From Candidatus Dojkabacteria bacterium HGW-Dojkabacteria-1 (lineage in GTDB: Bacteria > Patescibacteriota > Dojkabacteria > SC72): a stretch of DNA of 64,000 nt. Position 1 is the stretch's first letter. Each line of letters opens with the position of its first letter. The stretch is taken from the NCBI GenBank assembly GCA_002840365.1, contig PHAO01000001.1, positions 168,647-232,646 on the forward strand. The letters are read 5' to 3'. The notes beneath the pieces were generated by a model. That model was not told where the DNA came from. It was given only the letters and a program-made list of their open reading frames with translations, and searched no databases. Shown here one piece after another: positions 2,042-33,099 of this stretch. A program made the position numbers and the translations under genes.

Positions 2042-2105
2042 GCTGTAATTTTACTGCAATAGCAAGAAAAATGCCATAAAATGTAATATAATAGCGATAC
2101 CAAGA

Positions 2106-3146: not shown

Positions 3147-3150
3147 AAGG

Positions 3151-4170
3151 ATGAATTTAGAGACTCTTAAACAAAAATATTTCTTCATGCCAGATGCAAC
3201 TAGAGGAGCAGTAAGATACCTAACTACAAAACAACTTAAAGAAACAGGTACAGAGGCTATCGTTACAAATACACTACATCTACTTATACATCCTGGTCCT
3301 GATGTAATACAGGAGTTGGGAGGTATAAAGAAGATGATGGGATGGGATGGTATTGTTTTTACAGACTCTGGTGGTTTCCAGGTATTTTCTTTAATTCATT
3401 CTAAGAAATGGAAGGGTAAAGTACATGAAAATGGTGCTACTTTTAAATCTCCAAGAGAGGGAAATGTATATGAACTTACACCTGAATCTAGTATTGATAT
3501 ACAGATAAAGATTGGAAGTGATGTATTGGTGTGTTTAGATGATTGTAGAAAAACAGATTTAAATAGATATGAAGCAGAGCAATCTGTAGAGAGAACAATA
3601 AAGTGGGCAAAAAGATGTAAAGATCACTTTGAGAAAGAATATGGTGGAACAGCAAAAACTGGAAAACTTCTTACATGTGTTGTGCAAGGAGCCAATTTTC
3701 CAGACTTAAGAGAAAAGTGTGCAAAAGCATTAGTAGAAATAGGGTTTGATGGTTACAACTTCGGAGGATTTGTAGTAGACAGTGAGGGAAGGTTAGTGGA
3801 AGATGAAATGTCTGCAGTGATAGAGAATGTTCCGAAAGATACAATAAGGTATGCAATGGGAGTTGGTAAACCAGAAGATATTCTTAAAGCAGCGAAAATA
3901 GGTTTTAATCTCTTTGATACAGTACTTGTTACTCGTAATGCAAGACATGGAACACTGTATACATCAGAAGGAGAATTAAGGATGGGTAATAGTGAAATGG
4001 CTTTGGATAAAAGACCCGTAGATTCTAATTGTAATTGTGAATGTTGTTCTAATTATACTAGAGCATATATTCATCATATGATGAAAAATGGAGAAGCGAC
4101 TGCGCTTACTCTGGCAACTATCCACAATCTTACACACTACCAGTCTTTAATAAGTAAGCTAAATAGCTAG
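3151..4170 (+). CDS. tgt: queuine tRNA-ribosyltransferase
   Basis: FTDSGGFQVFSL, the LVCLDDC region, and the Zn-binding CNCECCSNYTRAYIHH near the C-terminus; 339 aa; directly follows queA. Confidence 0.9.
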   Translation: MNLETLKQKYFFMPDATRGAVRYLTTKQLKETGTEAIVTNTLHLLIHPGPDVIQELGGIKKMMGWDGIVFTDSGGFQVFSLIHSKKWKGKVHENGATFKSPREGNVYELTPESSIDIQIKIGSDVLVCLDDCRKTDLNRYEAEQSVERTIKWAKRCKDHFEKEYGGTAKTGKLLTCVVQGANFPDLREKCAKALVEIGFDGYNFGGFVVDSEGRLVEDEMSAVIENVPKDTIRYAMGVGKPEDILKAAKIGFNLFDTVLVTRNARHGTLYTSEGELRMGNSEMALDKRPVDSNCNCECCSNYTRAYIHHMMKNGEATALTLATIHNLTHYQSLISKLNS

Positions 4171-4387
4171 AAAGAAGACGCTAAAAATGATATCATTACT
4201 AAGTCCTTGATATAGCCATTTTTTAAGGCAGGGAAAGAAATATTGATATATTGAATTAATGAAATTTTTGAAGAATATATATATTAAAAGATATATACAA
4301 GAAGAATATTACAATCGGAATCTAGGTTAGATTCTGCTTTTTCTTTTCCCCAAAATAAGGATTGAATAAATTTTTAACAGTACTGTA

Positions 4388-5908
4388 ATGGACTTCATTA
4401 TTGGTCTCATTGCAACTCTACTGGGAAGTGCTCTCGCATTTTCTTACATTAAGTTTGTAAAAAAATGGGTAGACATAAAGAATATACCAGAAGAAGAAGT
4501 AGCAAGAGTTGCAGACAAAATAATCGGTGACAAAATAGAAAAAGCCGAAAAAGAAATAGAGGAAAACAAAAAGAGATCTGAGGATAGACTCAGGGAAATG
4601 AGGAAAGAAACTCAAGAGCATGAAGAGCTTCTCATAGATAGAGAGAAGAAGCTAAATGAGAGAACAAAGATGCTTGATCAGAAGAGTGAGGAATTGGAAG
4701 TATCTACTGAAAGTGTAAAGAAAATGCAAAGAGGTCTCGAGAAGACTAGAGCTCAACTTAAAGAAGAATTAGAAAGGATATCAGGTCTTACACAAGAAGA
4801 AGCAAGGCAAAAATTAATGAGCCAAGTAGATGAGGATATAAAAAACTATGAAGCAAAAAAGATTAGACAAGCAGAAAAGAAGGTAGAAGAAATTGCAGAA
4901 GAGAAAGCTAGAGAGATACTTGTAGAATCTATGCAAAGAATAGCTACTGACTATGTAGGAGAAACTACAACATCTACTATTAAAATTGAAGATGACAAAG
5001 TTAAGGGTAGAGTAATCGGTAAGGAAGGAAGAAACATTAGAGCATTTGAAAAACTAACAGGGGTAGATGTAATAGTGGATGAATCACCAAATACAATTGC
5101 TCTTTCATCCTTTGATCCACTTAGGAGAGAAATAGCTTCTGTCGCACTTACCAAACTTATCGGTGATGGAAGAATTCATCCAGGTTCAATTGAAGAAGCA
5201 ATTAGAAAAGCAAAGAATGAAATTTCGATAGAGATTAAAAAGAATGGTCAAATACTTGCTGAAGAGGCAGATTGGCCAGGAATAGACATAGGGTTGCTTA
5301 AACTCATTGGTAAGATGAAGTACAGAACAAGCTATGGACAATCACTCATGTCTCATACAATTGAGATGATGAGAATGGGAGAAGTATTAGCTGCTGAGGT
5401 AGGAGCTGATGTATCACTAGTAAAGAGAGCATGTCTTTTACATGATGTCGGTAAGGTTTTAACACACAAAATTGAAAGTCCTCATCATCATATATCTGGT
5501 CAAGTTGCTAGAAAGTATGGATTAGATGAGAAGTTAGTTAATGCAATAGAGTCACACCACTTAGATATTGAACCACAATCTGTAGAAGCAGTATTAGTAT
5601 ATATAGCAGATGCAATCTCTGGTGCAAGACCAGGTGCAAGAAAGGATAGCTATGAACAATATATTCAGAGAATTGAATCATTAGAGAATGTAGCTAAGGA
5701 ATTAGGTGGAGACAAGATAGAAGAGGTATTTGCAATTAAAGCAGGAAGAGAACTAAGAATAATTGTTAAACCTGCTTTGATATCCGATGATGAGATGACA
5801 GTACTTGCAAAGGATATTGCATCAAGTATTGAGAAGACTCAGAACTATCCAGGTAATGTAGAAGTAACCTTAATTAGAGAAACTAGAGCTGTAGAAGTAG
5901 CTAGATAG
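4388..5908 (+). CDS. rny: ribonuclease Y
   Basis: N-terminal TM helix, long coiled-coil, KH domain (GRVIGKEGRNIRAFEKLTGVDVIVDESPNTIALSSFDP) and HD domain (LLHDVGK...HH); 506 aa. Confidence 0.9.
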   Translation: MDFIIGLIATLLGSALAFSYIKFVKKWVDIKNIPEEEVARVADKIIGDKIEKAEKEIEENKKRSEDRLREMRKETQEHEELLIDREKKLNERTKMLDQKSEELEVSTESVKKMQRGLEKTRAQLKEELERISGLTQEEARQKLMSQVDEDIKNYEAKKIRQAEKKVEEIAEEKAREILVESMQRIATDYVGETTTSTIKIEDDKVKGRVIGKEGRNIRAFEKLTGVDVIVDESPNTIALSSFDPLRREIASVALTKLIGDGRIHPGSIEEAIRKAKNEISIEIKKNGQILAEEADWPGIDIGLLKLIGKMKYRTSYGQSLMSHTIEMMRMGEVLAAEVGADVSLVKRACLLHDVGKVLTHKIESPHHHISGQVARKYGLDEKLVNAIESHHLDIEPQSVEAVLVYIADAISGARPGARKDSYEQYIQRIESLENVAKELGGDKIEEVFAIKAGRELRIIVKPALISDDEMTVLAKDIASSIEKTQNYPGNVEVTLIRETRAVEVAR

Positions 5909-5959
5909 CGTAACTTCTAGTACACATTACTACAGGACCTAAATGCAACTAGGGTAAAA

Positions 5960-5990
5960 GAGGGGAGATAACTAATCTCCCCTTTTTGTT
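5960..5990 (+). terminator. rho-independent terminator after rny
   Basis: aggggagat(aacta)atctcccct followed by TTTTT. Confidence 0.7.
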
Positions 5991-6352
5991 TAAAAATCCT
6001 TTTATGTACACATTTTGTTTGTAAAACCTTTGGAAAGATCCTTATACAAAGATTTACTTAAACATGAAAGAATGCTTTTAAATAGTGACTTTTCAGGCAT
6101 GGGGATATGAAACAATATAGAAAAGAAAACATTTAAATAAATATTAATTTAAGATAATCAAATTATTTACTCAAAAGAAACATCATTTATCTTGACAAAT
6201 CAATACTTTTTAATACTACCTCTATAAAATCCTATAACAATAAGCTTCTTGCTGTAATCCTTTATTTACGCTATTTTATTGAAGTGGTAGCACGAATCGC
6301 ATGATATCAGGATTCGTGGCACCCATATCTCTAAGAAAGGAGGTTTAAACAC

Positions 6353-6625
6353 ATGTTAAAGAAAGATTTAATAGAGAGAGTTGCTAAAGCTGCTGGACTT
6401 ACAAAGAAGCAAGCAGGTGAGGCTGTAGATGCATTGTTTGATGCAATCACAGATTCACTTAAGTCTGGAGATCCTGTTTTACTAACAGGCTTCGGTAAGT
6501 TTGAAGTAAGAGAAAGAGCTGCTAGAACAGGTATCAATCCTAAGACTCTTGAGAAGATCAAGTTACCAGCATCTAAGGTTCCTGCCTTTAAAGCTGGAAA
6601 AGCACTTAAGGTTGCTGTTAAGTAA
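6353..6625 (+). CDS. hup: DNA-binding protein HU
   Basis: 90 aa; [32 protein letters not shown]...[20 protein letters not shown]; RBS AAAGGAGGT at 6335-6343. Confidence 0.9.
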
Positions 6626-6665
6626 GCAATTTCTGCCGGCATTTCTCTCTAGACGAGAGAATTAG

Positions 6666-6700
6666 AAAACCTGGGTTCCTGACCCAGGTTTTTCTTTTAC
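6666..6700. terminator. bidirectional rho-independent terminator between hup (+) and the flavodoxin-like gene (-)
   Basis: aacctgggtt-cctg-acccaggtt hairpin flanked by A-run and T-run. Confidence 0.7.
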
Positions 6701-6712
6701 ACAATCCAATGA

Positions 6713-7252
6713 TTATTTCTCTTGTTTGAAGAAGAATACTACAGAATTAGCTTTTTCTAAATCAACCATATCAGCTACCCCAAGTTTCTCTTTATTGTCT
6801 ATCATTTTGATAATGAATTTCTCAAAAAGATTCAATTTAGAAAAAACAACCCTACCAGGTAATTTAATATATTGAATCTTTTTCCTTATATGTACAGGAA
6901 TTTGTTTGTATGCATCCTTACTATTAGGATGATCCTCTGGTAGCATTCCAACTGCAAATACAAATACATTCTTGTTTTTTAATATACTCCAATTATTAAT
7001 TAAAAAGGAATTGTAAAAAGTCATACCAGCATATACAGAAGAACCTAATATTACATTCTTGTAAGAATTCAAATTTTTGATATCAAATTCTTCAACAGAG
7101 AATAGTTCGCTATCAGGAATATTCCTGTTTATATACTCTGCATACTCCTTTGTACTACCATATTTTGATTTATATATTATTACTGTATTCATTAATCTAG
7201 TTATCAAATTATACGCAATTATATATGAATTATTTTCAAAAGCGAACTTCAT
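6713..7252 (-). CDS. flavodoxin-like domain protein (true start probably at the internal Met, ~7192)
   Basis: MNTVIIYKSKYGSTKEYAEYI is a typical flavodoxin-fold N-terminus (FMN-binding loop). Confidence 0.55.
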   Translation of the reverse strand: MKFAFENNSYIIAYNLITRLMNTVIIYKSKYGSTKEYAEYINRNIPDSELFSVEEFDIKNLNSYKNVILGSSVYAGMTFYNSFLINNWSILKNKNVFVFAVGMLPEDHPNSKDAYKQIPVHIRKKIQYIKLPGRVVFSKLNLFEKFIIKMIDNKEKLGVADMVDLEKANSVVFFFKQEK

Positions 7253-7306
7253 ATTTAACCAATGACATGCTACTATGTATCAATAAATGATGTATAACTA
7301 CTGCTA

Positions 7307-8689
7307 GTGAGGAAATTCTTTATTCCAAGTAAAGACAATGATTACAAACCCTTCTTACTTAGGAGAGCTGCTCTCTCTGTATATACAATATTACTTCTTT
7401 TAGTTAACACCTTTGGTGGACTTGTAGGTATACCAGAAGTAATGGCAAGTTCTGTCACACCAAGTAATATAATAGGGCTTACAAATCAACAAAGAGCAGC
7501 AGCTGGACTAAATACTCTTAATGTTGATTCTAGGCTTACTGCAGCGGCTCAGGCGAAGGCAAACAACATGTTTTCAGAGCAGTATTGGGATCACTTTGGA
7601 CCAAATGGAGAGACTCCCTGGATGTTTATCTCACAAGCGGGATATCAGTATGTATATGCAGGTGAAAACTTAGCAAAAGGGTTTAGAACAGCAGAGGGTG
7701 TACATGAGGCATGGATGGCTAGTCCGACACATAGGGATAATATAATGAGTGGAAATTACAAAGATATTGGAGTTGCAGTAGTAGAGGGAGAACTTCTTGG
7801 AAAACAAACAACTCTTGTTGTTCAGATGTTTGGTAATTTAACATCTCAGACATTTAAAGCAGATGCACCTGTAAAATCAGAAACTACAAAACCAAAAGCA
7901 ACCATTGTAGAAAGTGGTCAGATTAAATCGATAAGTATAACTAGTCCTAAAGTTGGGGATTTAATAAAGGATGCTAATGTAAATATTAAGGGTATAACAA
8001 AAAATATTACAGGAAACTACTCTGTAGAAATTCTCAACAATGGTGAATATGTTGGAGAGGTTGAGAGTAGTTCCTCGCAGTGGGAATATGACAAAGGAAG
8101 TGACTGGGAAGAAGGAGAGAAAAGAATTATTGCTCAAGTAAAAGGGCAAGATATTAAATCAGAACAAGTAATCTTTACGATTGACTCCTCTCCACCAATA
8201 TTTTCCAAAGAAAGTATCGTAGTAAAGAGAACAGATACTGAATTTATAATTAGTTTTAAGGTACCTGTAGATGCTCAGTCAATACAATTTGTAACAGGTG
8301 ACAAGACCTTTGATTTAGAAGTAGATGAAGAAGGAAATGCAGTATTAGGAATCTCAAGAGAAGATATTGGGGGAAGGTCAATTATCATAATTGCAGATGC
8401 AGCAGGCAATATTTCGGAACATGATATATCGGAATATTTCTTAGACGGAGATGAAGTAACACAGGGAACTCCCAGTTTGATACTTTGGTTTAGAAATATT
8501 ATTGGTACAACAGATGGTATAAGCTTGGCAATTGTATCCTTTGTATTTATACTCTTATCGATAGAGGTATATGTATATTGGAAAAAAGGAATGTTAGGAA
8601 AGAGTGCTGGAGGATTGTTTACGATAGGGGCATGGTGGTTAATTATCTTAGTTGGTGTATTTAAAGGTTTCGGAGGAATTATTAATTAA
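7307..8689 (+). CDS. secreted/membrane-anchored CAP (SCP/PR-1-like, YkwD-type) domain protein with Ig-like middle region and C-terminal TM anchor; GTG start
   Basis: N-terminal signal/TM. CAP domain: LTNQQRAAAGLNTL...AAAQAKANNMFSEQYWDHFGPNGETPWM...AGENLAKGF...AWMASPTHRDNIMSGNYKDIGVAVV. Hydrophobic C-terminus. Confidence 0.7.
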   Translation: MRKFFIPSKDNDYKPFLLRRAALSVYTILLLLVNTFGGLVGIPEVMASSVTPSNIIGLTNQQRAAAGLNTLNVDSRLTAAAQAKANNMFSEQYWDHFGPNGETPWMFISQAGYQYVYAGENLAKGFRTAEGVHEAWMASPTHRDNIMSGNYKDIGVAVVEGELLGKQTTLVVQMFGNLTSQTFKADAPVKSETTKPKATIVESGQIKSISITSPKVGDLIKDANVNIKGITKNITGNYSVEILNNGEYVGEVESSSSQWEYDKGSDWEEGEKRIIAQVKGQDIKSEQVIFTIDSSPPIFSKESIVVKRTDTEFIISFKVPVDAQSIQFVTGDKTFDLEVDEEGNAVLGISREDIGGRSIIIIADAAGNISEHDISEYFLDGDEVTQGTPSLILWFRNIIGTTDGISLAIVSFVFILLSIEVYVYWKKGMLGKSAGGLFTIGAWWLIILVGVFKGFGGIIN

Positions 8690-8701
8690 AACTGCCTAAA
8701 A

Positions 8702-9493
8702 TTGAAAAAGAAAATAGAGATAAAAAATGAATTGCTTTACTTAGCATTGATTACACTTGTTACAGTGTACTTTTCATACACTACACATATTGCTGGATTA
8801 ATGTACTTAGTAACAGGTACTCTTGGTTTGTTACTCCTGCTTACTTGGTTTGTAAGAGCATTTGCACTCTACTCTGGAAGAAGAATATCTCAATATAGTG
8901 AAGTAATACAAAGGATATCGATAAGGGATAGATTCTTTTCTTACTTTGTATTACCATCCGTTTTCTACATCTCTCTACTTGCATATATATATTTTAATAC
9001 CTCTACAATAATGGATATGGTATTAATATTGGTTGCCTCAATACAGATATTAATACTCTTTCTAAACGTAAAAAGCTCTCTTAACAAGGTATATACAATT
9101 GCAGCACAAACAAGGGCTGTATTTGACTTCATATGTATATCTACATACTTCCTACTACTAAGTGTATTGATAAGGATGGGGTTAACAATCTTTCCATTTC
9201 TAGGATTAGTATTCCTTTCCTCGTTTATACTTTTCTGGTTCGATGTAAAAATACATAGTAGGGAAAGCCTTGTAGCATTTTTACTCTCCTTTGTATCAGC
9301 TATCTTTGTATCTCTCTTTGCATGTTTGTTCTTCTCTAGTAATATATTCATTATCCCAGCAGTAGGAACTTTGGCATTTTACTTAATTTTGTCGCTTTGG
9401 AATATACGTTTTGCAGGTAAAGTCCGATTGGTAGATTACCTTCTTCCTTTCCTGTACTCAATACTAGCATTAATATTAATCTTAAACCTATGA
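8702..9493 (+). CDS. polytopic integral membrane protein, hypothetical
   Basis: 263 aa with at least 7 hydrophobic helices; no recognisable motif; stop overlaps the next start (ATGA). Confidence 0.55.
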   Translation: MKKKIEIKNELLYLALITLVTVYFSYTTHIAGLMYLVTGTLGLLLLLTWFVRAFALYSGRRISQYSEVIQRISIRDRFFSYFVLPSVFYISLLAYIYFNTSTIMDMVLILVASIQILILFLNVKSSLNKVYTIAAQTRAVFDFICISTYFLLLSVLIRMGLTIFPFLGLVFLSSFILFWFDVKIHSRESLVAFLLSFVSAIFVSLFACLFFSSNIFIIPAVGTLAFYLILSLWNIRFAGKVRLVDYLLPFLYSILALILILNL

Positions 9494-10194
9494 AAAAGAG
9501 CATTGTATTAAAAGTTGGAGGATCAATTCTGTATGATCATTTACTTAATATCAATTTTGAACTCTTTCGAAGAGTAAAACTTTGGTACTGGGATGCAAAG
9601 AAAGAATATGAGAATATTGTTCTTGTAACAGGTGGGGGTGGCATATCCAGAAATATGCAGGAGAAAGTCTCTGAAAATATTGATGGGGAAGAAGATATTC
9701 ATAATATAGCAATGTCTTTAACACAAACGAATGCAACAATACTTGCTTCATATCTTGAAGATAAGGAAATATTTCTCCCCAAAAAGTTGGGTGATGCATA
9801 TGAATATCTACATATGTCTACAGGAAAATATATGGTAAGTGGTGGTTTGAAGGTAGGATGGAGTACAGATATGGATGCTGCGGTATTTGCAGATATATTA
9901 GGTGCAGACAGGGTGTTTAAAATATCAAATGTAGATGCAATATATGACAAAGATCCAAAAGAATACTTTGAAGCAAAACCTATAAGGGATATGTCTTGGG
10001 AAGAGTATTTTCAGATGTTTTCAATATTTCCAGGGCAAACACATACCCCAAATTCCCATATGCCAGTAGACTCACAATGCTCAATGTATTGTGAAAAGAA
10101 AGGTCTCTCATTTCATATAACTGGTGGGAAGCTATTAGATGAAAAACAAGATATAAAGGAAATCCTAAACGAGGGAACCTTTGTTCATCCGTAA
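9490..10194 (+). CDS. pyrH: amino-acid-kinase family protein, archaeal-type UMP kinase-like
   Basis: KVGGSIL N-terminus, LVTGGGG, and GGLKVGWSTDMDAAVFADILGADRVFKISNVDAIYDKDPK matching the archaeal UMPK block (GGTHPGHTTD...VDGVY..DP). Confidence 0.6.
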   Translation: MKKSIVLKVGGSILYDHLLNINFELFRRVKLWYWDAKKEYENIVLVTGGGGISRNMQEKVSENIDGEEDIHNIAMSLTQTNATILASYLEDKEIFLPKKLGDAYEYLHMSTGKYMVSGGLKVGWSTDMDAAVFADILGADRVFKISNVDAIYDKDPKEYFEAKPIRDMSWEEYFQMFSIFPGQTHTPNSHMPVDSQCSMYCEKKGLSFHITGGKLLDEKQDIKEILNEGTFVHP

Positions 10195-10196
10195 AT

Positions 10197-10667
10197 CTAC
10201 TCAATAGTAAGGATTGTACAGGCTGTTTCTCCAGCTGGAGTCTCTATAGACAATTTTGCACCCTTCTTCTTTCCCATAAGAGAGCTACCAATAGGGGATT
10301 TGTAAGAGATTTTCAGCTCTAGTGGGTTTGCCTCATTTATACCTACAATATCAAAAGTTTTTAATTGACCGCCCTGACACTCTATCGTTACCTTACTGCC
10401 TATATCTACAACATTTGTTTTCTTCTCTGTTACAATTTCTGATGTTTCTAATGTCTTTCGTATCTCAAGAATCTTCTCTTCGTTGTTTTGAAAATCTTCT
10501 ACAGCAAGAGAGTATCCATCGTTCTCTCTAAGGTCACCCTGCTTTCTCATTTGATTAAGTGTTTCTTGTAATTTTGTTCTAACCTTTCCTTCTCTTTTTT
10601 CTAGTTCTTTTTGAAGCTTTCTGTAACCTTCTTTTGTGAGCAGTACTTTATGTTTGTTAACTGCCAT
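10197..10667 (-). CDS. greA: transcription elongation factor GreA
   Basis: 156 aa. N-terminal coiled-coil (LTKEGYRKLQKELE...LRENDGY) and C-terminal FKBP-like domain (GSKVTIECQGGQLKTFDIVG). Confidence 0.85.
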   Translation of the reverse strand: MAVNKHKVLLTKEGYRKLQKELEKREGKVRTKLQETLNQMRKQGDLRENDGYSLAVEDFQNNEEKILEIRKTLETSEIVTEKKTNVVDIGSKVTIECQGGQLKTFDIVGINEANPLELKISYKSPIGSSLMGKKKGAKLSIETPAGETACTILTIE

Positions 10668-10781
10668 CTTAATGAATATATAAGTTATATTCGTGCAATC
10701 ATATTACCAATTATCCCCTTTGTCAATGAATTTTTTACATCAAAAAATATGGGTAAAAAGAAAGACCAAAAGCCATTTTTG

Positions 10782-10790
10782 TGGTAAAAT
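10782..10790 (+). promoter_or_regulatory. extended -10 element (TGgTAAAAT) positioned ~7 nt upstream of the tRNA-Glu 5' end
   Basis: tggtaaaat at 10782-10790; the tRNA starts at 10803. Confidence 0.4.
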
Positions 10791-10802
10791 GCTAGCCAAT
10801 AT

Positions 10803-10877
10803 GCCGCTATCGTCTAACGGTTAGGACACATGATTCTCAATCATGTAATCGGGGTTCGATTCCCCGTAGCGGTACCA
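10803..10877 (+). tRNA. tRNA-Glu (anticodon CUC), CCA encoded
   Basis: Cloverleaf fits: acceptor gccgcta/tagcggt (G1-U72 wobble), anticodon arm catga-TTCTCAA-tcatg, T-arm cgggg-ttcgatt-ccccg, discriminator A + CCA. Confidence 0.8.
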
Positions 10878-10886
10878 ATGACAAAT

Positions 10887-11564
10887 ATGATAAAGTTCGA
10901 TTTAATAACAATATTTCCTGATTCTTTACAAGCATATCTTGATAGCAGTATTTTGAAAAGAGCTCAAGAAAAAGGATTAGTAGAGATAAAGGTACACAAT
11001 CTAAGAGATTGGAGTAGTAGTAAACATAGAACTGTTGATGATACTCCATATGGAGGAGGTCCAGGTATGGTTTTCATGGTAGAGCCAATATACAATGCCC
11101 TTTGCGAATTAAGAAAAGAGAATACAAAGGTTTTCCTTACATCCCCAAAAGGTAAGAAGTTAGTACAGAGTACATTTGTAGAGCTATCTAATGATATCAA
11201 TGCTCACTACATTATTCTTTGTGGTCACTATGAAGGTTTTGATCAGAGGGTACATGACCATCTTGTAGATTATGAATTTTCAATAGGGGACTATGTTCTT
11301 TCTGGTGGAGAGCTGCCAGCTTTGGTATTAGTAGATGGAATTACAAGATTAATACCAGGTGTACTTGGAAATGAGCAATCCCTTGATATGGAGTCATTTA
11401 CTAATGATACGTTAGATTTCCCTCAATATACAAAACCATCAGAGTTTAATGGATGGAGTGTTCCTGAAGTTTTACTCTCTGGAAATCACAAGGAGATACA
11501 GAAATGGAGAGAGGAAAACTCAATACTAGAAACAAAAAACAAGAGACCAGATTTGAGCAAATAG
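10887..11564 (+). CDS. trmD: tRNA (guanine37-N1)-methyltransferase
   Basis: MIKFDLITIFPDSL...TPYGGGPGMV...SGGELPALVLVDG. The ORF-track start at 10830 overlaps the tRNA; 10887 (or 10878) is the plausible start. Confidence 0.9.
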   Translation: MIKFDLITIFPDSLQAYLDSSILKRAQEKGLVEIKVHNLRDWSSSKHRTVDDTPYGGGPGMVFMVEPIYNALCELRKENTKVFLTSPKGKKLVQSTFVELSNDINAHYIILCGHYEGFDQRVHDHLVDYEFSIGDYVLSGGELPALVLVDGITRLIPGVLGNEQSLDMESFTNDTLDFPQYTKPSEFNGWSVPEVLLSGNHKEIQKWREENSILETKNKRPDLSK

Positions 11565-11631
11565 TTTGACCTTGTTTAGATTGTCTAAATATTCTACAAT
11601 CATATTAGAAATATTTGAGTCTATCACCCTC

Positions 11632-12102
11632 ATGAAGAAAGAAACATACAGGATAACTGAGGAGAAAAAATTTGAGTTAATTGAAGAACTTAACAAGTTA
11701 CAGAACGAAGTTTTGAAACAAATAGCTGACAGACTTGAAGAAACGAGAAAAGAAGATTTAAGTGAAGATGATATACAGCTTGGAGAGATACTTGAAGAAA
11801 AAGAGGTGGTTGAAAGAAGAATAGATGAGATAAGTGATATTCTGGATAATTGTGAAATTATTATAGACAAAGATTACTGCGAACCCTTCACTGTTAATTT
11901 AGGTTCAACTGTAAAATTAAAGCAAGGTCGAAGAATATTTGATGTTAAATTAGTTTCCTCTCTTGAGGCTGATCCTGAAAAGAATTATATCTCTGACAAA
12001 TCTCCACTAGGGAAAGTATTGTTAAAGTCCAAATCAGGAGATATAGTAAATGTAAAGATAAGGGGAAATGTTACTGAATACAAGATCCTAGACGTATGTT
12101 AA
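11632..12102 (+). CDS. GreA/Gfh-family transcription factor paralog (start probably at MKKETYRITEEKKFEL)
   Basis: Coiled-coil N-terminus plus an FKBP-like C-terminus (TVNLGSTVKL...DVKLVSSLEADPEKNYISDKSPLGKVLLKSKSGDIVNV) typical of the Gre family. Confidence 0.6.
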   Translation: MKKETYRITEEKKFELIEELNKLQNEVLKQIADRLEETRKEDLSEDDIQLGEILEEKEVVERRIDEISDILDNCEIIIDKDYCEPFTVNLGSTVKLKQGRRIFDVKLVSSLEADPEKNYISDKSPLGKVLLKSKSGDIVNVKIRGNVTEYKILDVC

Positions 12103-26056: not shown

Positions 26057-26132
26057 CGGGGTGTAGTTCAGATGGCTAGAACGCTTGCATGGGGTGCAAG
26101 AGGTCGCACGTTCAAGTCGTGTCACCCCGACC
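26057..26132 (+). tRNA. tRNA-Pro (anticodon GGG), CCA encoded
   Basis: Acceptor cggggtg/caccccg with C1:G72 (bacterial tRNA-Pro hallmark), anticodon arm cttgc-aUGGGGu-gcaag (U33, G37), T-arm gcacg-ttcaagt-cgtgt, discriminator A + CCA. Confidence 0.8.
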
Positions 26133-26342
26133 AGTTAAGACGAGACCCTCCCGAAACATTGATACATAGGCATTATCAGCGTGATACATGCCATTTATCA
26201 AAATTATCCAGATTCTACTAAATCTGTATAAAGTCCCTTTGTACAAGCATAATCACCGTTCAAGTCCTGTCAGGTCTTTAGCTATATTCCGCTCGTAAAA
26301 ATCGATATCATTTTATTCATATTATTTTTTACTAATATTTAT

Positions 26343-26585
26343 ATGGATAAAATGGATTTAATAGATTCAGATGTAACACTGGATGAGTTATTTGAGTGGT
26401 TGAAGGATGAGATTGAAAAAGGGAATTTTCCACAGTTTCAGGATAAATCAGATGAAGAATTGCTTGAACTTGTTAAGGTTGCAAAGCCATTAATTGAGAT
26501 CGAGCTAAGGTTAGCCAATGCATTTGCATGGGAGCAGGTAAATTCGATTAAGAAAAAGGGTAAGATTCTTCAAAGAAAGGCATGA
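26343..26585 (+). CDS. hypothetical small acidic protein (80 aa), same strand as the OLD-family gene 66 bp downstream
   Basis: ORF only; acidic helical N-terminal part and basic tail (KKKGKILQRKA). Confidence 0.4.
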   Translation: MDKMDLIDSDVTLDELFEWLKDEIEKGNFPQFQDKSDEELLELVKVAKPLIEIELRLANAFAWEQVNSIKKKGKILQRKA

Positions 26586-26651
26586 TCAGTATTATTTTTT
26601 TACTGAAATTGCGAAATGGAATATAATTAACTATACATTGAAGAAAACTAT

Positions 26652-28394
26652 ATGAAGATAAAGAGCGTTACAATTGAGAATTTCCGTTGCTTCGATACCC
26701 CTTTGGTAGTCAACTTTGAGAACTATTCTGGGCTAGTCGGAAAGAATGGAACTGGAAAAACATCTGTATTAGAAGCCATCAACTTAGCTACTTCTCAATA
26801 TTACGTTAGTTCTCGTATAAATGAATCTGATTTTAATAACGAAGAGAATATAAGGATTATAGTAGAATTTGATAAGTGCTTTGTCATGCTCATTCCTGAT
26901 GGTTTTGCTTCCCAATATGTACCTTCAAATAGAATCTATCTAGCAATCTCACGAAGATCAAAGGCCGCTGCCGGTAAGGCTTTAAATGACGGATATACAA
27001 TTAATCATTTTGCAATCCCATATACATATTCAAGTAGCACAGAGCTATCTGATGTATTAGAAGATAGTATGCTAAATGGTCAAGAATCGTTGGATAAGCT
27101 CCCTAATTCAGTACTCCTTAATGGTGACGAAGATGAATACAAGTATAAGATCACCAGGAAGAGTGGTACGGTAAAATACGCAGATTCAAGAAGTCTACAA
27201 CTTTCGAATAACATGATTGGATTCCCAAATGTCTTTTATTTTGATAAAGATCGTGAAGGAGAAACAAGTAAGAAATTCAACAATCTTATGTCTAGGATTT
27301 TAGATGATCTGAATTGGAGATACCTTTCAAAAACAAGCGATGAGACTGAAATACTCCAGTCGGAGGAATCCGAAGGCGAGGCTGTTATGGGAACAGCTAT
27401 TCTAGAGCAACTAATTCTAGATGTATGGGAAGAATATTACAATAAGGTAATTGGTACTGTTGAGAAAGAAAAATCAAAGAGAATTATTTATCCCTTAAAG
27501 AAGAAAATGAAAGACTTCTGGGGTGAGATGTATGAGGATCTAGAACTATCAGTTCTTGATCTTACAAGTCCATTTTCTTCAGGATTCTTCTCTCTAAGGA
27601 AACAGAAGAAATCAAAGCAGATTAAAGTAAACAACTTAGGATCTGGAGAGTCAATGATATTAGCCTATTTCCTCTTGCAAACAATCAGTAAATTATCGAA
27701 AGAGAGGGTAATATATCTTATAGATGAGCCAGAAATGCACTTGCATCCACAGGCGCAGGTTAAGTTATTCGATGAGATACAGAAGTCCAAGAACCAGGTG
27801 ATTTATACAACGCATTCGGATATGTTCGTTGATATTGGGGCTTGGAAATCTATTTTAAGGTTTTCACCAGAAGAGGTCTACCCAACAGAAGAAATTCTGA
27901 ATGACAAGAGCATTGAGGATAAGGCCATTAGTGAGCATCTTGAGGAGATTAAACAGTTCCACCAAGATAAAACAATCTTTGTGAGGGAAAATAATGAAAT
28001 ATTCTTTGCCGATAAGTGTTTGCTAGTTGAAGGTCCTATAGATAAGTATGGAAATGCGATTCTTGCTAAGAAATTATCGAAGGAATTTCAAAACACAACG
28101 ATTGTTAGCTGTACTGGCAAGACAAAAATACTTTATTATGTTCTGCTATGTAAAGCCTTTGGTATCCCTTATTTTGTGATCTATGATCAAGACGAAGAGG
28201 GTAAATATACACTTCTTGAAGATAATTCTGATAATATAGAATCATACACAACATCATTCGAGAAGGTTTTTGAGCAAGGCGAAGAAGCAAGAAGAAACGA
28301 TATTCTTACATATATAATTAATCTTGATAAGGAGAACATTCCAGAGGAAGTTGTGAATATAATTCAAACTATAAGTACTTGGTCAGACGAATAA
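26652..28394 (+). CDS. OLD-family nuclease: single-chain ABC-type ATPase plus C-terminal TOPRIM domain (class-1 OLD / GajA-like)
   Basis: KIKSVTIENFRCF N-terminus; Walker A GKNGTGKTS (26739-26765); ABC-signature-like LGSGES; Walker B/H-loop VIYLIDEPEMHLHP (~27716-27752); TOPRIM Glu LLVEGPID (~28021-28044) and DxD IYDQDEEG (~28181-28204); 580 aa. Confidence 0.8.
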   Translation: MKIKSVTIENFRCFDTPLVVNFENYSGLVGKNGTGKTSVLEAINLATSQYYVSSRINESDFNNEENIRIIVEFDKCFVMLIPDGFASQYVPSNRIYLAISRRSKAAAGKALNDGYTINHFAIPYTYSSSTELSDVLEDSMLNGQESLDKLPNSVLLNGDEDEYKYKITRKSGTVKYADSRSLQLSNNMIGFPNVFYFDKDREGETSKKFNNLMSRILDDLNWRYLSKTSDETEILQSEESEGEAVMGTAILEQLILDVWEEYYNKVIGTVEKEKSKRIIYPLKKKMKDFWGEMYEDLELSVLDLTSPFSSGFFSLRKQKKSKQIKVNNLGSGESMILAYFLLQTISKLSKERVIYLIDEPEMHLHPQAQVKLFDEIQKSKNQVIYTTHSDMFVDIGAWKSILRFSPEEVYPTEEILNDKSIEDKAISEHLEEIKQFHQDKTIFVRENNEIFFADKCLLVEGPIDKYGNAILAKKLSKEFQNTTIVSCTGKTKILYYVLLCKAFGIPYFVIYDQDEEGKYTLLEDNSDNIESYTTSFEKVFEQGEEARRNDILTYIINLDKENIPEEVVNIIQTISTWSDE

Positions 28395-28401
28395 ACTGAT
28401 A

Positions 28402-29556
28402 TTACTTGGGATTAATAATAGTGACTATATTAAGGTTATCCTTACTCATACTGTTTAAATCATTCTCCAATCCTGCAGGGTTACCGATCCTGCCTTCTGG
28501 ATCATAGATAAAACAAATCAAATTTTTACAATCAGGGTGTTTCGAATATCTAGCGATATCAATGATAATCTGTTCTCCAATTTCCTTATCTTCCAAGCCC
28601 TTCCTTGTCTTCTTCACCTCTATAACGGTTTCAATTTCCTTTATCAAGAAATCACTTCGGGATGAGCTTCCTGCGTAGCTTGGGTTCCACTCCTCTTTGC
28701 GAACATCCTCAAATTTTATGTGCAATAACGCATATAATAAATCTTGTACGTCATATTCATCTTCTACCTGAATTGTATCCCGACCGTCATAACGATCCTT
28801 AACTTTTCTAGCAAATCTATGGAAGCCGTTGCACAAATCGAGAACATCCTGTATTTCAGATGTTCTTCCCGTACCCTGCTTAAAATACTTTGACTTGATA
28901 TCAATTTGTTTCAATACGTTACGTGACAAGCGTATTAGCTCCAACATTTTACTAGCTAATAATGTAGTAGAGAGCAGTTCTGAATGGAACTGTATGTGTG
29001 GTGGAACTTTGAATCCTTCAGAAACGGCTCTAGAATCTCTTGATATAGCATTTGAGGGCTGCTGGTATCTGATAAGATCTCTCGTTTGATGGTGTAATTC
29101 CAGATCTTCAATCTTCTTTAGCTCAGCCTGTTGAGTTGAATACTCGTCACTGTCTTTGATAAATGCAAGAGTATTAACAATATCATCTCTAAGTTTCTTA
29201 GCACTTTCAGCAATTTGATTTATCTTGCCACAAAGATCATCTATTTCTTTCAGCTTGTGACTTTCTCCGATCTTACTCTTTACGTCCTCATATGTTTTTT
29301 CGTTCCATCCTGCGGGTATTCCATGATAACCTGCTCCTCCCCATTCAATGTTAAATTTACTTCCAGGAGGTGGTTTCTGAAAATCGCTAAAATATAGGTA
29401 AGCATGGTATCCTAACCAGGAGCCACTCCAAGATTCCTCTAATTTGCTAACGACATCGGCGACATCATCTATCTCCTTAGAATATTTCTTTATATCTGAA
29501 CTATTCTCCTTGTCGAATTTATCTATTTTTTTCTTGAGTTCTTCTAGTTCTTTCAT
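28402..29556 (-). CDS. hypothetical protein: N-terminal alpha-helical domain of unknown family plus C-terminal PD-(D/E)xK nuclease-like domain
   Basis: C-terminal ...EDEYDVQDLLYALLHIKFEDV...SSSRSDFLIKEIETVIEVKK...GEQIIIDIARY fits the E...hhD...ExK...Q..Y pattern of restriction-endonuclease-fold nucleases (motif DNA ~28605-28670). Convergent with the OLD gene (3' ends 8 bp apart); co-directional with the TA pair upstream. Confidence 0.5.
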   Translation of the reverse strand: MKELEELKKKIDKFDKENSSDIKKYSKEIDDVADVVSKLEESWSGSWLGYHAYLYFSDFQKPPPGSKFNIEWGGAGYHGIPAGWNEKTYEDVKSKIGESHKLKEIDDLCGKINQIAESAKKLRDDIVNTLAFIKDSDEYSTQQAELKKIEDLELHHQTRDLIRYQQPSNAISRDSRAVSEGFKVPPHIQFHSELLSTTLLASKMLELIRLSRNVLKQIDIKSKYFKQGTGRTSEIQDVLDLCNGFHRFARKVKDRYDGRDTIQVEDEYDVQDLLYALLHIKFEDVRKEEWNPSYAGSSSRSDFLIKEIETVIEVKKTRKGLEDKEIGEQIIIDIARYSKHPDCKNLICFIYDPEGRIGNPAGLENDLNSMSKDNLNIVTIINPK

Positions 29557-29622
29557 ATGGTAATTATATTAAACCGTAATACATTTGTCGTTTATAAAGT
29601 AATTAGTTGATCTCTTATACTA

Positions 29623-29997
29623 TCAAAGAAATGTTTTGTAGTAGTATTCTAACCTTTCTTTATCTTCATTAGCCTTGTTTCCTTTGTAATATATTTCAAC
29701 CAAAATCACTTTTATATCTTTCTTGATGAAAATATAAATAAGTCTAAGACCTGATTTTGCCCCCTTTCCTTTGAATGATTTTGAAGCGAATTTCTTGACT
29801 TTGCACGAAATAATATCGTCATTGCTGAAGCCCGGTATTGGAAATATTGAATTGTTATCAATGCTGTTGAGATGATATAGACTTATAGCAGCCTTTTTAA
29901 CCACTTCTAAGTCTTCAGGAAGCGTTTTATACTTCTTGCAAAGTTTTTTTAGGTCTTTGTCAAATTCAGATGTTGTTTCAAAGCTAATTTTCCCCAT
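29623..29997 (-). CDS. RelE/YafQ-superfamily type II toxin-like protein
   Basis: 124 aa. FDKDLKKLCKKYKTLPEDLEVVKKAAISL...GLRLIYIFIKKDIKVILVEIYYKG matches the RelE/YafQ/Gp49 layout. Overlaps the upstream HTH-Panacea gene by 14 nt. Confidence 0.55.
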   Translation of the reverse strand: MGKISFETTSEFDKDLKKLCKKYKTLPEDLEVVKKAAISLYHLNSIDNNSIFPIPGFSNDDIISCKVKKFASKSFKGKGAKSGLRLIYIFIKKDIKVILVEIYYKGNKANEDKERLEYYYKTFL

Positions 29998-30766
29998 AAT
30001 TTCTCACTGATGTCTTAGGTGTTCGATAAAATACAGTTTCGTAATCAATGGGTTTCGTGTCTTCGGTAACAATCCAAGGAACATCTTGATGAGAATATTC
30101 GCTTAGCTCACTTGCATTTTTATCTGATAATCTTGCAAGAACTTCATCTATATGACGTAATTCTTGTGCGCTAAGAAGTTTTGATAAATCGGGTTCCCTT
30201 ACAGCTAAATATTTTTTTTGGTCATAGTTAAAGTATTTATTTTTCACTATAACTAACTCTTCTTTTGCAACCATTTCCTCAACAAGCTTTTTAAATTCAA
30301 CCGGTGTTGGTCCATGATGATTTTTTATATATGTTGCTCCTATGAGTTGCTCTTCGTATTTTTCGTAGTAATCAAAATCAATAAAATAAAGTAACTTGTA
30401 TAGTACTGTTTCACCGACATTTGGTTTGGCACCTGCCTTGGTCAGAATATATAAGAAAATTTCACGAAATTTATTGAAATTTTTCTGAGGGATACTAATC
30501 CTTAGATTTTCCTCTTGGTTATCGTTATTGTTCTTCATCTTTTCTATGATATCAATCTTAATCCTATCAACAGGCTTTTGGTTAAGTAGGTCATCGATTG
30601 ACATATTTAACAATTTCGCAAGTTTCTGTAGTTCAGTAAGTGAGAGATCTCTAGTCCCTTGCTCAATATTTATATACGTTGGGCGAGATATCCCTAATTT
30701 CTGGGCAACATAATTTTGGGAGTAATTTAATTTCTCTCTTTGTTTTTGTATATATTTTCCAATCAT
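29984..30766 (-). CDS. XRE-family HTH plus Panacea (DUF4065/SocA-like) domain protein, putative antitoxin
   Basis: N-terminal Cro/C1 HTH (LNYSQNYVAQKLGISRPTYINIEQGTRDLSLTELQKLAKLL). Central VLYKLLYFIDFDYYEKYEEQLIGATYIKNHHGPTPVEF matches the Panacea LxKLLYxxD...GPv core (DNA ~30290-30420). Confidence 0.65.
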   Translation of the reverse strand: MIGKYIQKQREKLNYSQNYVAQKLGISRPTYINIEQGTRDLSLTELQKLAKLLNMSIDDLLNQKPVDRIKIDIIEKMKNNNDNQEENLRISIPQKNFNKFREIFLYILTKAGAKPNVGETVLYKLLYFIDFDYYEKYEEQLIGATYIKNHHGPTPVEFKKLVEEMVAKEELVIVKNKYFNYDQKKYLAVREPDLSKLLSAQELRHIDEVLARLSDKNASELSEYSHQDVPWIVTEDTKPIDYETVFYRTPKTSVRNYGEN

Positions 30767-30791
30767 AGTATTTTGGCAGTTAAATTAAATA

Positions 30792-30932
30792 CTATTTAGT
30801 TCTTTTTTTTCTTTTTTCTCTTTGTGACAACGCACTTCCTGCGACAGATTTTGTTTTTTTTGTGGTTCTCTTATTTCTAAGCAGTGAAGATGCTTTCTTT
30901 GCAACTTTCTTACTGGTTACTTTTCTAGCCAT
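30792..30932 (-). CDS. very small, extremely basic ORF (46 aa: MARKVTSKKVAKKASSLLRNKRTTKKTKSVAGSALSQREKRKKRTK) immediately upstream of the HTH-Panacea gene; speculative
   Basis: Found by hand translation (below the ORF-track size cutoff). A sigma70-like -35/-10 (TTGACA ...15 nt... TATAAT on minus strand, plus coords 30951-30977) lies just upstream. No RBS. Confidence 0.2.
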   Translation of the reverse strand: MARKVTSKKVAKKASSLLRNKRTTKKTKSVAGSALSQREKRKKRTK

Positions 30933-31243
30933 ATCTATGATTCAAATAAAATTATATTTAGATTTTACCGGTGTCAAATATATTTGTCAATACATATGTA
31001 AAGAATGTTGACTTTCATTTATACTTATATGTTTAAATAAGGAAGCTCAAAAAGGAACTTCCACTTATACTCAAACTCTTTAACAAATGAAATAATGCTA
31101 TCAATGAAAGGGAGAATCCGTTCGTACATAGTACGATCACCCCGACCATTTCCATTACTAAGGGTCTAGGAATATATTTCACAATGTTTTGTATCTTTGA
31201 TATTGTAGAACTTGTCTTCTCTTAATTTCAGTACTACCAGAAT

Positions 31244-32184: not shown

Positions 32185-33099
32185 CTACGGGGCTAATAAC
32201 TGGAATGGTGGGGTGAACGAGTCACATCCAACGGGGTCAATAGTGTACCCTTTTCCAGCTAAGTCCTTGGGGACATTTCTCATGGTCTCGAACGACTTGC
32301 CACCGTAGCCATAGGCTTCGGGGCCTGACGGACCAAATTGCCACCAACTAAGGTTCCCGCGAGGGATCCCCGTTGCACTGTAATTTGTACCAGCCCATAC
32401 TAAATATCGGAGAACTTGATTCCCACTCTTAAGTGCATAGCATACCACTTTCTTAATGGGGTCTTGCTCGTTAGGATCTGGCGGCCACCGGTTTTTCAAG
32501 TCAGCAAACACCTGTGTTGCTACATTCGAGCTTCCTGCAACAACGGTATGTGCTTCCTTGTGTTCTGGGCTTACCGGTATATACCCTAGCACTGATGCCC
32601 ATAAGGCCAAGGCGGCACTCAGGTCCATTGGATTATCGTAATATATTGCACCAACAGGTACATTTGCAGTATATACGACATACCCAACGGTTAGGGTTCC
32701 CCAGACAATAAGGGCCAAGACATCGGCTGGACCAGGGGCAGGACTATCCATTACACCAACGGCAGCACCGATGGGCATGACAGCGATTCCTGCTTCTTGC
32801 CAGTTGATGGGCTTGTATAGATAGTACACTTGCAGTCCATCAACGTCTTCTTGCAGTGTTGGGGGAGTTTGAATCCTAACAGGAGTGGGAGTAGTAATAA
32901 CCTTCCCTTCACTTGTAGTTATCGATCCCCCCGCAGGAACAATTGTTGCCTCGGCACTTGCCTGTGCTAGAGGCTGGTTTGAACTATCCGGAATTGCAAC
33001 AGGTTGCGCAACCGGTTGAGTATTCACCCCAGAGGGTGGCGTCGAGCAAGCAGCAAGCATTGCAACGACAAGGACATAAACTACCAGCTTTCTAAACAT
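32185..33099 (-). CDS. lipoprotein of foreign origin (GC ~50% vs ~33% backbone), hypothetical
   Basis: Signal peptide plus lipobox LAACS, a Pro/Thr/Gln-rich linker, then a globular C-terminal domain. Codon usage is strongly GC3-rich, unlike all neighbours. Confidence 0.65.
   Translation of the reverse strand: MFRKLVVYVLVVAMLAACSTPPSGVNTQPVAQPVAIPDSSNQPLAQASAEATIVPAGGSITTSEGKVITTPTPVRIQTPPTLQEDVDGLQVYYLYKPINWQEAGIAVMPIGAAVGVMDSPAPGPADVLALIVWGTLTVGYVVYTANVPVGAIYYDNPMDLSAALALWASVLGYIPVSPEHKEAHTVVAGSSNVATQVFADLKNRWPPDPNEQDPIKKVVCYALKSGNQVLRYLVWAGTNYSATGIPRGNLSWWQFGPSGPEAYGYGGKSFETMRNVPKDLAGKGYTIDPVGCDSFTPPFQLLAP

Follow-up and report, generated by a model that had tools for sequence, protein, structure and literature searches.

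Two overlapping genes on the minus strand of a 64,000-nucleotide stretch of the Candidatus Dojkabacteria bacterium HGW-Dojkabacteria-1 genome (hereafter the window) raise the question of whether they form a toxin–antitoxin (TA) module and, if so, which type of toxin is encoded and which part of its partner could neutralize it. The evidence described below indicates that the pair is likely a bicistronic type II TA module of the PanAT class with a HigB-2-type RNase as its toxin. The panA-like antitoxin gene A, delimited from the open reading frame (ORF) list and Pfam matches, encodes 260 amino acids (aa) and is located at 29984-30766 (minus strand), and the toxin gene T, delimited from the ORF list, profiles and an AlphaFold2 (AF2) model, encodes a 124-aa protein with a pI of 9.4 at 29623-29997 (minus strand); both begin with ATG. 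The 3' end of A and the 5' end of T overlap out of frame by 14 nt (29984-29997, minus strand) in the ORF list, exactly as described in the first-pass annotation of this DNA, and a Shine–Dalgarno-like GTGAG is situated 6 nt upstream of the toxin ATG. The peptide strings quoted in that annotation were all located in the two products: LYKLLYFIDFDYY corresponds to residues 122-134 and GPTPVEF to residues 152-158 of A, and F-D-KDLKKL corresponds to residues 12-19 and GLRLIYIFIKKDIKVILVEIYYK to residues 83-105 of T.

The number of homologs and the recurrence of the pair argue that A and T are real genes and not chance ORFs. At least 7,740 homologous clusters were found for A. For T, a word-indexed search returned 335 homologs, an exhaustive hidden Markov model (HMM) search at the level of 50%-identity clusters identified 1,012 cluster representatives (478 at E ≤ 1e-10), and scanning a single genome of each GTDB species for a sequence pattern detected T relatives at 467 loci. 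A database entry identical to T bears the title 'hypothetical protein CVU76_01045, Candidatus Dojkabacteria bacterium HGW-Dojkabacteria-1', and T is encoded with 100% identity on several independent metagenome contigs, where the locus recurs. No T relatives were found in IMG/VR, PLSDB or INPHARED.

The stability of the pair was analyzed on the best 80 of the 467 GTDB species loci with T relatives. A Panacea gene, with or without a helix-turn-helix (HTH) region, is located immediately upstream of the T homolog and on the same strand in 79 of the 80 loci, the single exception beginning at a contig edge, and every full-length antitoxin gene in the collection carries the HTH. Short overlaps between the two genes, from -1 to -26 nt, are typical of the related loci; apparent overlaps of more than 40 nt are an artefact of the longest-ORF rule. 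The loci span groups of the Candidate Phyla Radiation (CPR), Desulfobacterota, Aminicenantes, Chloroflexota, Planctomycetota, Nitrospirota, an Aenigmatarchaeota archaeon and others, and clustering of the flanking ORFs revealed A and T as the only genes common to them. A reciprocal check gave the same picture, with A homologs at about 60% identity carrying a T-family gene at an overlap of 17 nt. The two proteins co-diverge, their pairwise identities being strongly correlated across the loci (r = 0.85, Mantel p = 0.001).

The domain architecture of the antitoxin is as the first-pass annotation had called it, an XRE-type HTH fused to a Panacea (DUF4065) domain, with both HTH_3 and PF13274 above the Pfam thresholds. 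The XRE/Cro-C1-type HTH occupies residues 1-65 (30572-30766, minus strand; HTH_3 over residues 6-60, E 2.4e-16) and is followed by a linker of residues 66-94 (30485-30571, minus strand), which is poorly conserved and predicted to be disordered from its identity and its predicted local distance difference test (pLDDT) values. The Panacea (DUF4065/SocA-like) domain extends over residues ~95-231 (30074-30484, minus strand), and the protein ends with an acidic conserved tail of residues 232-260 (29987-30073, minus strand), a candidate toxin-binding segment. The SocA_Panacea profile PF13274 matches residues 122-231 of A over profile positions 1-112 of 113 with an E value of 1e-17. The match reaches 65.5 bits, the gathering score being 25.7, so that the DUF4065 match proposed as a check in the first-pass annotation is significant at the domain level. 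A precomputed PF13274 match is also present in 120 of the 120 A homologs listed. NCBIfam SocA_antitoxin matches residues 115-234 weakly, and the PADLOC models of restriction-modification (R-M) controller proteins give a weaker match to A, in line with the HTH and Panacea composition.

Conservation is distributed unevenly along the antitoxin. Across 75 species, mean pairwise identity is 0.76 for Panacea residues 88-160, 0.62 for the tail, 0.41 for the HTH and 0.21 for linker residues 66-87, while the value for the toxin is 0.54. The Panacea core is therefore more conserved across phyla than the cognate toxin, which reverses the usual pattern of TA pairs. In the tail (pI 4.95), residues Y242, E243, V245, F246, Y247, R248 and K251-Y257 (K-T-S-V-R-N-Y) are invariant in the multiple alignment (A4). 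The AlphaFold model of A, built from 33 fairly similar homologs, has a pLDDT of 67.5, with values of about 90 in the HTH, moderate confidence in the Panacea domain and low confidence in the linker (residues 70-94, pLDDT < 50), in a loop (residues 139-150) and in the tail (residues 226-260, pLDDT < 50). The modeled HTH superposes on C.BclI, SinR and P22 c2 with a root-mean-square deviation of 1.2-1.5 Å in Foldseek, and the same search with the whole model retrieved HTH repressors only, with no solved Panacea structure among the matches. Judging from the model, the conserved, acidic and predicted-disordered tail resembles a toxin-neutralizing element that folds upon binding.

Because direct comparison with family HMMs gave nothing significant, the identification of the toxin rests on profiles and predicted structure. 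A phmmer search of T against PDB sequences produced a single toxin-like match, Vibrio cholerae HigB-2 (E 0.06), and a profile built from 41 T homologs recovered HigB-2 in the PDB with an E value of 1.2e-4 (hmmsearch). The hhalign comparison of T with HigB-2 gave a probability of 89% and an E value of 2e-6, aligning T residues 75-108 with HigB-2 residues 54-87. Among the 41 relatives, PF06296 matched three below its threshold (best E 0.0027), and about 15 T homologs are labeled 'mRNA-degrading endonuclease RelE' by JGI.

AlphaFold modeling of T yielded a structure with a pLDDT of 85.5, a predicted template modeling score of 0.81 and a beta-alpha-alpha-beta4-alpha topology, with strands at residues 5-8, 51-58, 62-70, 84-91 and 96-104 and helices at residues 10-22, 26-43 and 113-123. 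In a Foldseek search of the PDB with this model, the best 39 matches were all RelE-superfamily RNases, comprising HP0892, archaeal aRelE, HigB2, RelE, YoeB, HigB and YafQ. The YafQ structures rank 33rd to 39th in this list, with E values of 0.14-0.23. Of the RelE/YafQ-type toxin proposed in the first-pass annotation, the RelE superfamily is consequently retained, on the HigB-2 profile match and the AF2 fold, and YafQ is not.

The catalytic positions of HigB-2 provide a closer criterion. Alanine substitutions of Arg51, Arg64, Tyr82 and Lys84 reduce the activity of V. cholerae HigB-2 by 170- to 3000-fold (PMC5416850). In the profile and hhalign alignments, R85, Y103 and K105 of T correspond to Arg64, Tyr82 and Lys84; these three residues are invariant in 41 homologs and are conserved at 96%, 87% and 90%, respectively, across 117 representatives of the 50%-identity clusters. 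More broadly, K66, K68, K69, G79, G83, R85, Y103 and K105 are invariant or nearly so in the 41 homologs, and the same positions from K66 to K105 are among the most conserved across the 117 representatives. The loop KGKGAKSG of T (within KSFKGKGAKSG) parallels KGKGKRGG of HigB-2, the basic Gly/Lys-rich beta2-beta3 loop. A further, non-significant hhalign alignment with E. coli RelE places YKVK of T on YKIK (K52, K54) and SGLRLIY on SGYRLVY (R61).

The YafQ site is built on His and Asp residues (H50, H63, D67 and H87). A His-based site of this kind is absent from T, in whose family the sole partly conserved histidine is H42 (65 of the 117 representatives), and no PF15738 match is found; YafQ identity was therefore rejected. 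Since R85, Y103 and K105 align with HigB-2 and both the His site and a PF15738 match are missing, T is HigB-2-like and not YafQ-like. The first-pass annotation had also reported that the usual catalytic residues were missing; T indeed has no YafQ-type His site, but the HigB-2/RelE-type Lys/Arg/Tyr/Lys site is kept. From the sequence, the active site of T thus looks intact (K66, K68, K69, R85, Y103 and K105). What would be refined by the present analysis is the class of the toxin, HigB-2-like instead of YafQ-like, and the state of its catalytic site, apparently intact instead of missing.

An independent sign comes from a haemagglutinin-repeat protein of 3,334 aa (P0294; contig L091, positions 1753-11757), in which a complete T-family domain forms the extreme C-terminus (residues 3213-3330, E 3.5e-30). 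Ahead of the T domain, a module of ~190 aa occurs twice, and the protein has the appearance of a CdiA-like polymorphic toxin; the contig stops short of where an immunity gene would be seen. By analogy with polymorphic or contact-dependent toxins, this architecture offers circumstantial support for the toxicity of the T domain.

How does the pair compare with systems already described? Kurata et al. (2022) found toxins of dozens of folds paired with Panacea antitoxins and listed 343 PanAs with an HTH (PMC8832971). PanA antitoxins bind their cognate toxins directly, and HTH-PanAs are common (PMC8832971, PMC10440598). The closest entry is PanT group T14 (cluster pT15) of Dataset S1, for which HHpred assigned HigB-2 at 99.73%, with the antitoxin first and usually carrying an HTH, a spacing of -17 to +32 nt (-4 to -17 nt where the genes overlap), and a toxin described as a small 'hypothetical protein' (PMC8832971). 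Its approximately 16 RefSeq members, among them WP_015641600.1 and WP_067091868.1, come from two Candidatus Saccharibacteria, Cryosericum (Cryosericota), several Bacteroidetes and three Methanobacteria; T28 and T59 are further RelE/ParE-like PanT groups in the same study (PMC8832971). Compared by catalog description only, our pair shares with T14 the leading HTH-PanA, the overlapping genes, HigB-2 as best remote match and the presence in CPR bacteria, and it differs in family size, 467 species loci and 1,012 cluster representatives against about 16 RefSeq members. Neither 'Dojkabacteria' nor this accession appears in the supplements of PMC8832971 and PMC10440598. The pairing of PanA antitoxins with RelE-fold or HigB-2-like toxins is thus already in the published catalog, where it is known for T14 by computation only; the A-T pair fits this computationally cataloged architecture and would conceptually add little to it. 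A 2025 survey of RelE/ParE toxins makes no mention of Panacea partners (PMC11980606).

What T shares with HigB-2 itself (PF06296; PDB 5JA8, 5JAA, 8A0X) is a RelE fold that includes a C-terminal helix, a basic beta2-beta3 loop, a GxRxIY strand and a last strand ending in IY-x-K. In contrast, T falls below every Pfam threshold, its significant alignment is limited to the C-terminal third, and the antitoxin-first order differs from the toxin-first order of higBA2. HigA2 combines a disordered N-terminal neutralizing segment with a C-terminal HTH, whereas A combines an N-terminal HTH with Panacea. The antitoxin-first bicistronic layout and the RelE-fold toxin are shared with E. coli RelBE and DinJ-YafQ, and the YK-x-K and SG-x-R-x-x-Y strands of T resemble RelE K52/K54 and R61 in the non-significant alignment mentioned above; RelB and DinJ, however, are ribbon-helix-helix antitoxins, unlike A, the His-based site of YafQ is not found in T, and T matches neither PF15738 nor PF05016.

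For neutralization, a comparison is offered by Bacillus fungorum MqsR:PanA, in which an antitoxin containing both Panacea and an HTH is likewise paired with a BECR/RelE-superfamily RNase toxin. According to the NetFlax study, stand-alone Panacea neutralizes directly, and in multidomain PanAs this is done by zinc-binding domain (ZBD), PAD1 or Phd-C modules (PMC10440598). MqsR:PanA is the only validated PanA that neutralizes a RelE-superfamily RNase; its N-terminal ZBD is responsible, and HTH-Panacea alone is insufficient (PMC10440598). A has no ZBD, and therefore a different element must neutralize T, the candidates being the Panacea core and the conserved tail at the C-terminus. Because A has no other candidate neutralizing domain, the pair offers the cleanest natural test of whether Panacea or the tail neutralizes a RelE-fold RNase. 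The toxin family is also of practical interest: with about 1,000 clusters at 50% identity and 467 species, it lies outside all Pfam, NCBIfam and PADLOC models, its members are annotated as 'hypothetical' because no curated model covers T, and a new HMM for the family would mend thousands of annotations.

Several points weigh against the assignment of the pair as a PanAT module with a HigB-2-type RNase. T has no match in Pfam (E ≤ 1), NCBIfam or PADLOC and nothing significant in PHROGs; the comparison with RelE, ParE and YafQ family HMMs suggested in the first-pass annotation accordingly came out negative in Pfam, NCBIfam and PADLOC, with no threshold match to any of 13 curated RelE/ParE Pfam families (PF06296, PF05016, PF15738, PF05973 and others). 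The profile and hhalign matches to HigB-2 span only the C-terminal 34-45 residues of T, and the equivalence of K69 with R51 of HigB-2 comes from a manual alignment only (KKFASK versus IRVASK) that is not significant. The N-terminal part of the HigB-2 query agrees with the published numbering and with the PDB alignment. Foldseek E values for the toxin model are marginal, at about 1e-3, and TM scores range from 0.45 to 0.68, although probabilities reach 1.00. On the antitoxin side, the disorder of the tail is possibly exaggerated by the shallow alignment of 33 similar sequences, and direct neutralization of T by Panacea is uncertain, since HTH-Panacea alone failed in MqsR:PanA. All T14 members are marked 'notest' in the catalog (PMC8832971). 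Finally, promoter-like sites upstream of the pair are no more numerous than in shuffled sequence, so the promoter described next is a candidate only.

The best sigma-70-like site upstream of the pair, TTGACA-17-TAAAAT (11/12), is located at 30962-30990 (minus strand) and is preceded by a terminator-like hairpin at 31062-31041 on the same strand. Conservation of its -35 element extends to the closest relative, a locus of Dojkabacteria UBA4813 (L005). The near-palindrome TGTCAAATATATTTGTCA (30972-30989, minus strand) overlaps this site and is a candidate operator for the HTH. The pattern TGTNAA-N2-9-TTNACA occurs at 10 of 70 loci in the 200 nt preceding the antitoxin gene, against 0.35 expected from shuffling and 1 of 70 in the control region; the loci with this palindrome are mostly among the closest relatives, and at other loci TTNACA is directly repeated around the -35 element. 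As far as sequence patterns can indicate, the palindromes and repeats would fit autoregulation by a dimeric XRE HTH. Between the outer repeat described below and the promoter, a non-coding region of about 120 nt (31030-31150, minus strand) is conserved with L005, the alignment (A2) having 81% mean column identity overall. This region folds better than shuffled sequence (z = -2.7), has the terminator-like hairpin at its end and has no Rfam match.

We hypothesize the following mode of action. T would most likely enter the ribosomal A site and cleave translating mRNA, with catalysis by a Lys/Arg/Tyr/Lys site in which K66, K68 and K69 lie on one strand, R85 on the next, and Y103 and K105 where the last strand ends. 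A may bind T directly and neutralize it, probably through the Panacea domain and/or the acidic C-terminal tail and not through the unconserved linker. Repression of the operon could come from the N-terminal XRE HTH, which would presumably act as a dimer at the TGTNAA...TTNACA operator over the -35 element, and the 14-nt overlap would couple translation such that T is made only after A. Once the antitoxin is lost, whether by proteolysis or through a phage or stress cue sensed by Panacea, free T would be expected to shut translation down.

What such a module would do for its host is suggested by its surroundings. It lies in an islet of 5.0 kb beside tRNA-Pro(GGG) (26057-26133, plus strand; detected by ARAGORN and Rfam, the Rfam scan of the islet returning the tRNA only). 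The 3' end of this tRNA, TCACCCCGACCAgTT (26122-26136, plus strand), is the left copy of a direct repeat (D4), and the right copy, TCACCCCGACCAtTT (31137-31151, plus strand), marks the outer edge of both the islet and the homology with L005; the 64-kb window contains exactly two occurrences of the 12-mer of the repeat, where 0.09 would be expected. The islet contains an 80-aa ORF, a gene for an OLD-family nuclease, a restriction endonuclease (REase)-like gene, T, A and a 46-aa ORF, with no integrase present. The OLD-family ATPase-TOPRIM nuclease (580 aa; 26652-28394, plus strand) is recognized by Pfam AAA_15 and OLD-like_TOPRIM and by PADLOC Old (E 2e-35). It also matches GajA in PADLOC (E 9e-28), and because no helicase gene is adjacent, the protein looks like a stand-alone class-1 enzyme and not like Gabija. 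The REase-like gene (384 aa; 28402-29556, minus strand) combines a helical N-terminal half with a C-terminal DpnII/MboI-type REase domain (PF18742, E 1.5e-54) and matches PADLOC Aga_Helical-REase (E 6.5e-32) and phrog_29450 (E 2e-57). It is convergent with the OLD gene, and no methyltransferase gene is nearby. Given this position within a small defence islet beside tRNA-Pro, the likely role of the module is stabilization of the islet and/or abortive infection.

Could defence be the main function? The module may be mainly an anti-phage abortive-infection sensor–effector pair, with Panacea sensing a phage cue and releasing or activating the RNase while the biochemistry stays unchanged; we consider this possible, if somewhat doubtful. 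In its favor are the 5-kb islet shared with the OLD-family nuclease and the REase-like protein, the bounding repeats derived from the tRNA-Pro 3' end, and the higher conservation of Panacea residues 88-160 relative to both toxin and HTH, which suggests a constraint beyond partner binding; the authors of NetFlax also propose Panacea as a sensor (PMC10440598). However, no trigger is known, and with no T relatives in the phage collections no context of phage counter-measures is visible. The neighbors, moreover, are not kept together with the module. The A-T cassette has a homolog in L005 that directly adjoins the 3' end of tRNA-Pro, with the OLD and REase-like genes absent, and at other loci the flanks vary. 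The homology between the window and L005 runs from 31145 to 29634 and then jumps to 26139-26038, and its outer boundary in L005 is a degenerate copy of the repeat. Owing to this jump, the 3.5-kb segment with the 80-aa ORF, the OLD gene and the REase-like gene (26140-29633 of the window versus 3364-3372 of L005) is an insertion or deletion exactly at the junction of the tRNA and the toxin gene. No third (att) copy of the repeat was found on reading the sequence at the toxin-proximal junction of this segment, and no empty-site allele was found via the HD-domain gene in the flank, the islet being present on all contigs that encode the identical protein.

The same comparison makes the tRNA-Pro 3' flank look like a hotspot that may collect TA and defence cargo. 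On the other side of tRNA-Pro in L005 (3552-4180), a Gp49/HigB-type toxin gene (PF05973, E 9e-19) precedes an XRE-HTH antitoxin gene, so that two RelE-superfamily TA modules flank one tRNA. A compact defence/TA islet beside a tRNA gene is retained even in an ultra-small Dojkabacteria genome, for which a close relative provides a clear with/without comparison. A more far-reaching proposal, which we put forward as speculation and consider unlikely to hold, is that HTH and Panacea alone, with no ZBD, PAD1 or Phd-C, represent an undescribed way of neutralizing a RelE-fold RNase, in which the Panacea core and/or the invariant, acidic tail (predicted to be disordered) would fold onto the toxin, the constrained core would sense a conserved trigger, and the cassette of ~1.4 kb, with tRNA-Pro 3'-end repeats as its borders, could be a minimal mobile unit without an integrase through which defence islets are seeded in CPR genomes.

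Returning to the bicistronic PanAT module, a third component would have to be considered if the small ORF between promoter and antitoxin gene belonged to the operon. This 46-aa ORF (30792-30932, minus strand; pI 12; MARKVTSKKVAKK...) matches phrog_5079 (E 1.1e-15), has no Pfam or NCBIfam match and no phage tblastn match. As a leader peptide, a basic nucleic-acid-binding accessory protein or a regulator, its product would make the operon tripartite, and the arguments for this are that the only strong promoter-like site lies upstream of it, that it has the phrog_5079 match and 86% identity in a Saccharibacteria locus (L006), and that a perfect 9-bp inverted repeat, ATAGTATTT-N13-AAATACTAT (30765-30795), bridges its stop codon and the ATG of A. 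This repeat may form a hairpin in the RNA or serve as a second operator. However, the ORF is missing from nearly all of the 80 loci: it is present in L006, persists as a 15-codon remnant in L005 and is absent elsewhere; it is therefore not a core component, and a tripartite operon is quite improbable.

Fold alone cannot tell ParE from RelE (PMC11980606), no curated RNase family model matches T, and one of the 41 relatives shows a very weak ParE_toxin match (E 0.29), so T might have the RelE/ParE fold and yet poison gyrase as ParE does or cleave RNA independently of the ribosome. We judge this to be very improbable, given that the best sequence relative is the mRNase HigB-2 and not ParE, that R64, Y82 and K84 of HigB-2 are matched by near-invariant residues in T, and that the lysine-rich loop is mirrored. 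ParE identity as such was rejected on the missing PF05016 match and the conserved RelE/HigB-2-type catalytic positions. An inactive, relic toxin gene, with the pair now serving only as a transcription regulator and its passenger gene, is hardly credible: genome-reduced CPR bacteria could in principle hold decayed TA genes, and eight PanTs were non-toxic in E. coli (Kurata et al., PMC8832971), but the T ORF is intact with every conserved family position kept, it recurs at 100% identity on several independent contigs, and its catalytic positions are under strong purifying conservation.

Outside the islet, an ORF of 304 aa at 32185-33099 (minus strand) has a lipoprotein-like N-terminus (...AMLAAC) and no Pfam match. 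It sits in a 1-kb block of 47.6% GC content, with surroundings of 30-36%, and a 66%-identical variant occupies the equivalent place on another contig (L002); the product may be a surface protein that evolves fast or was acquired horizontally.

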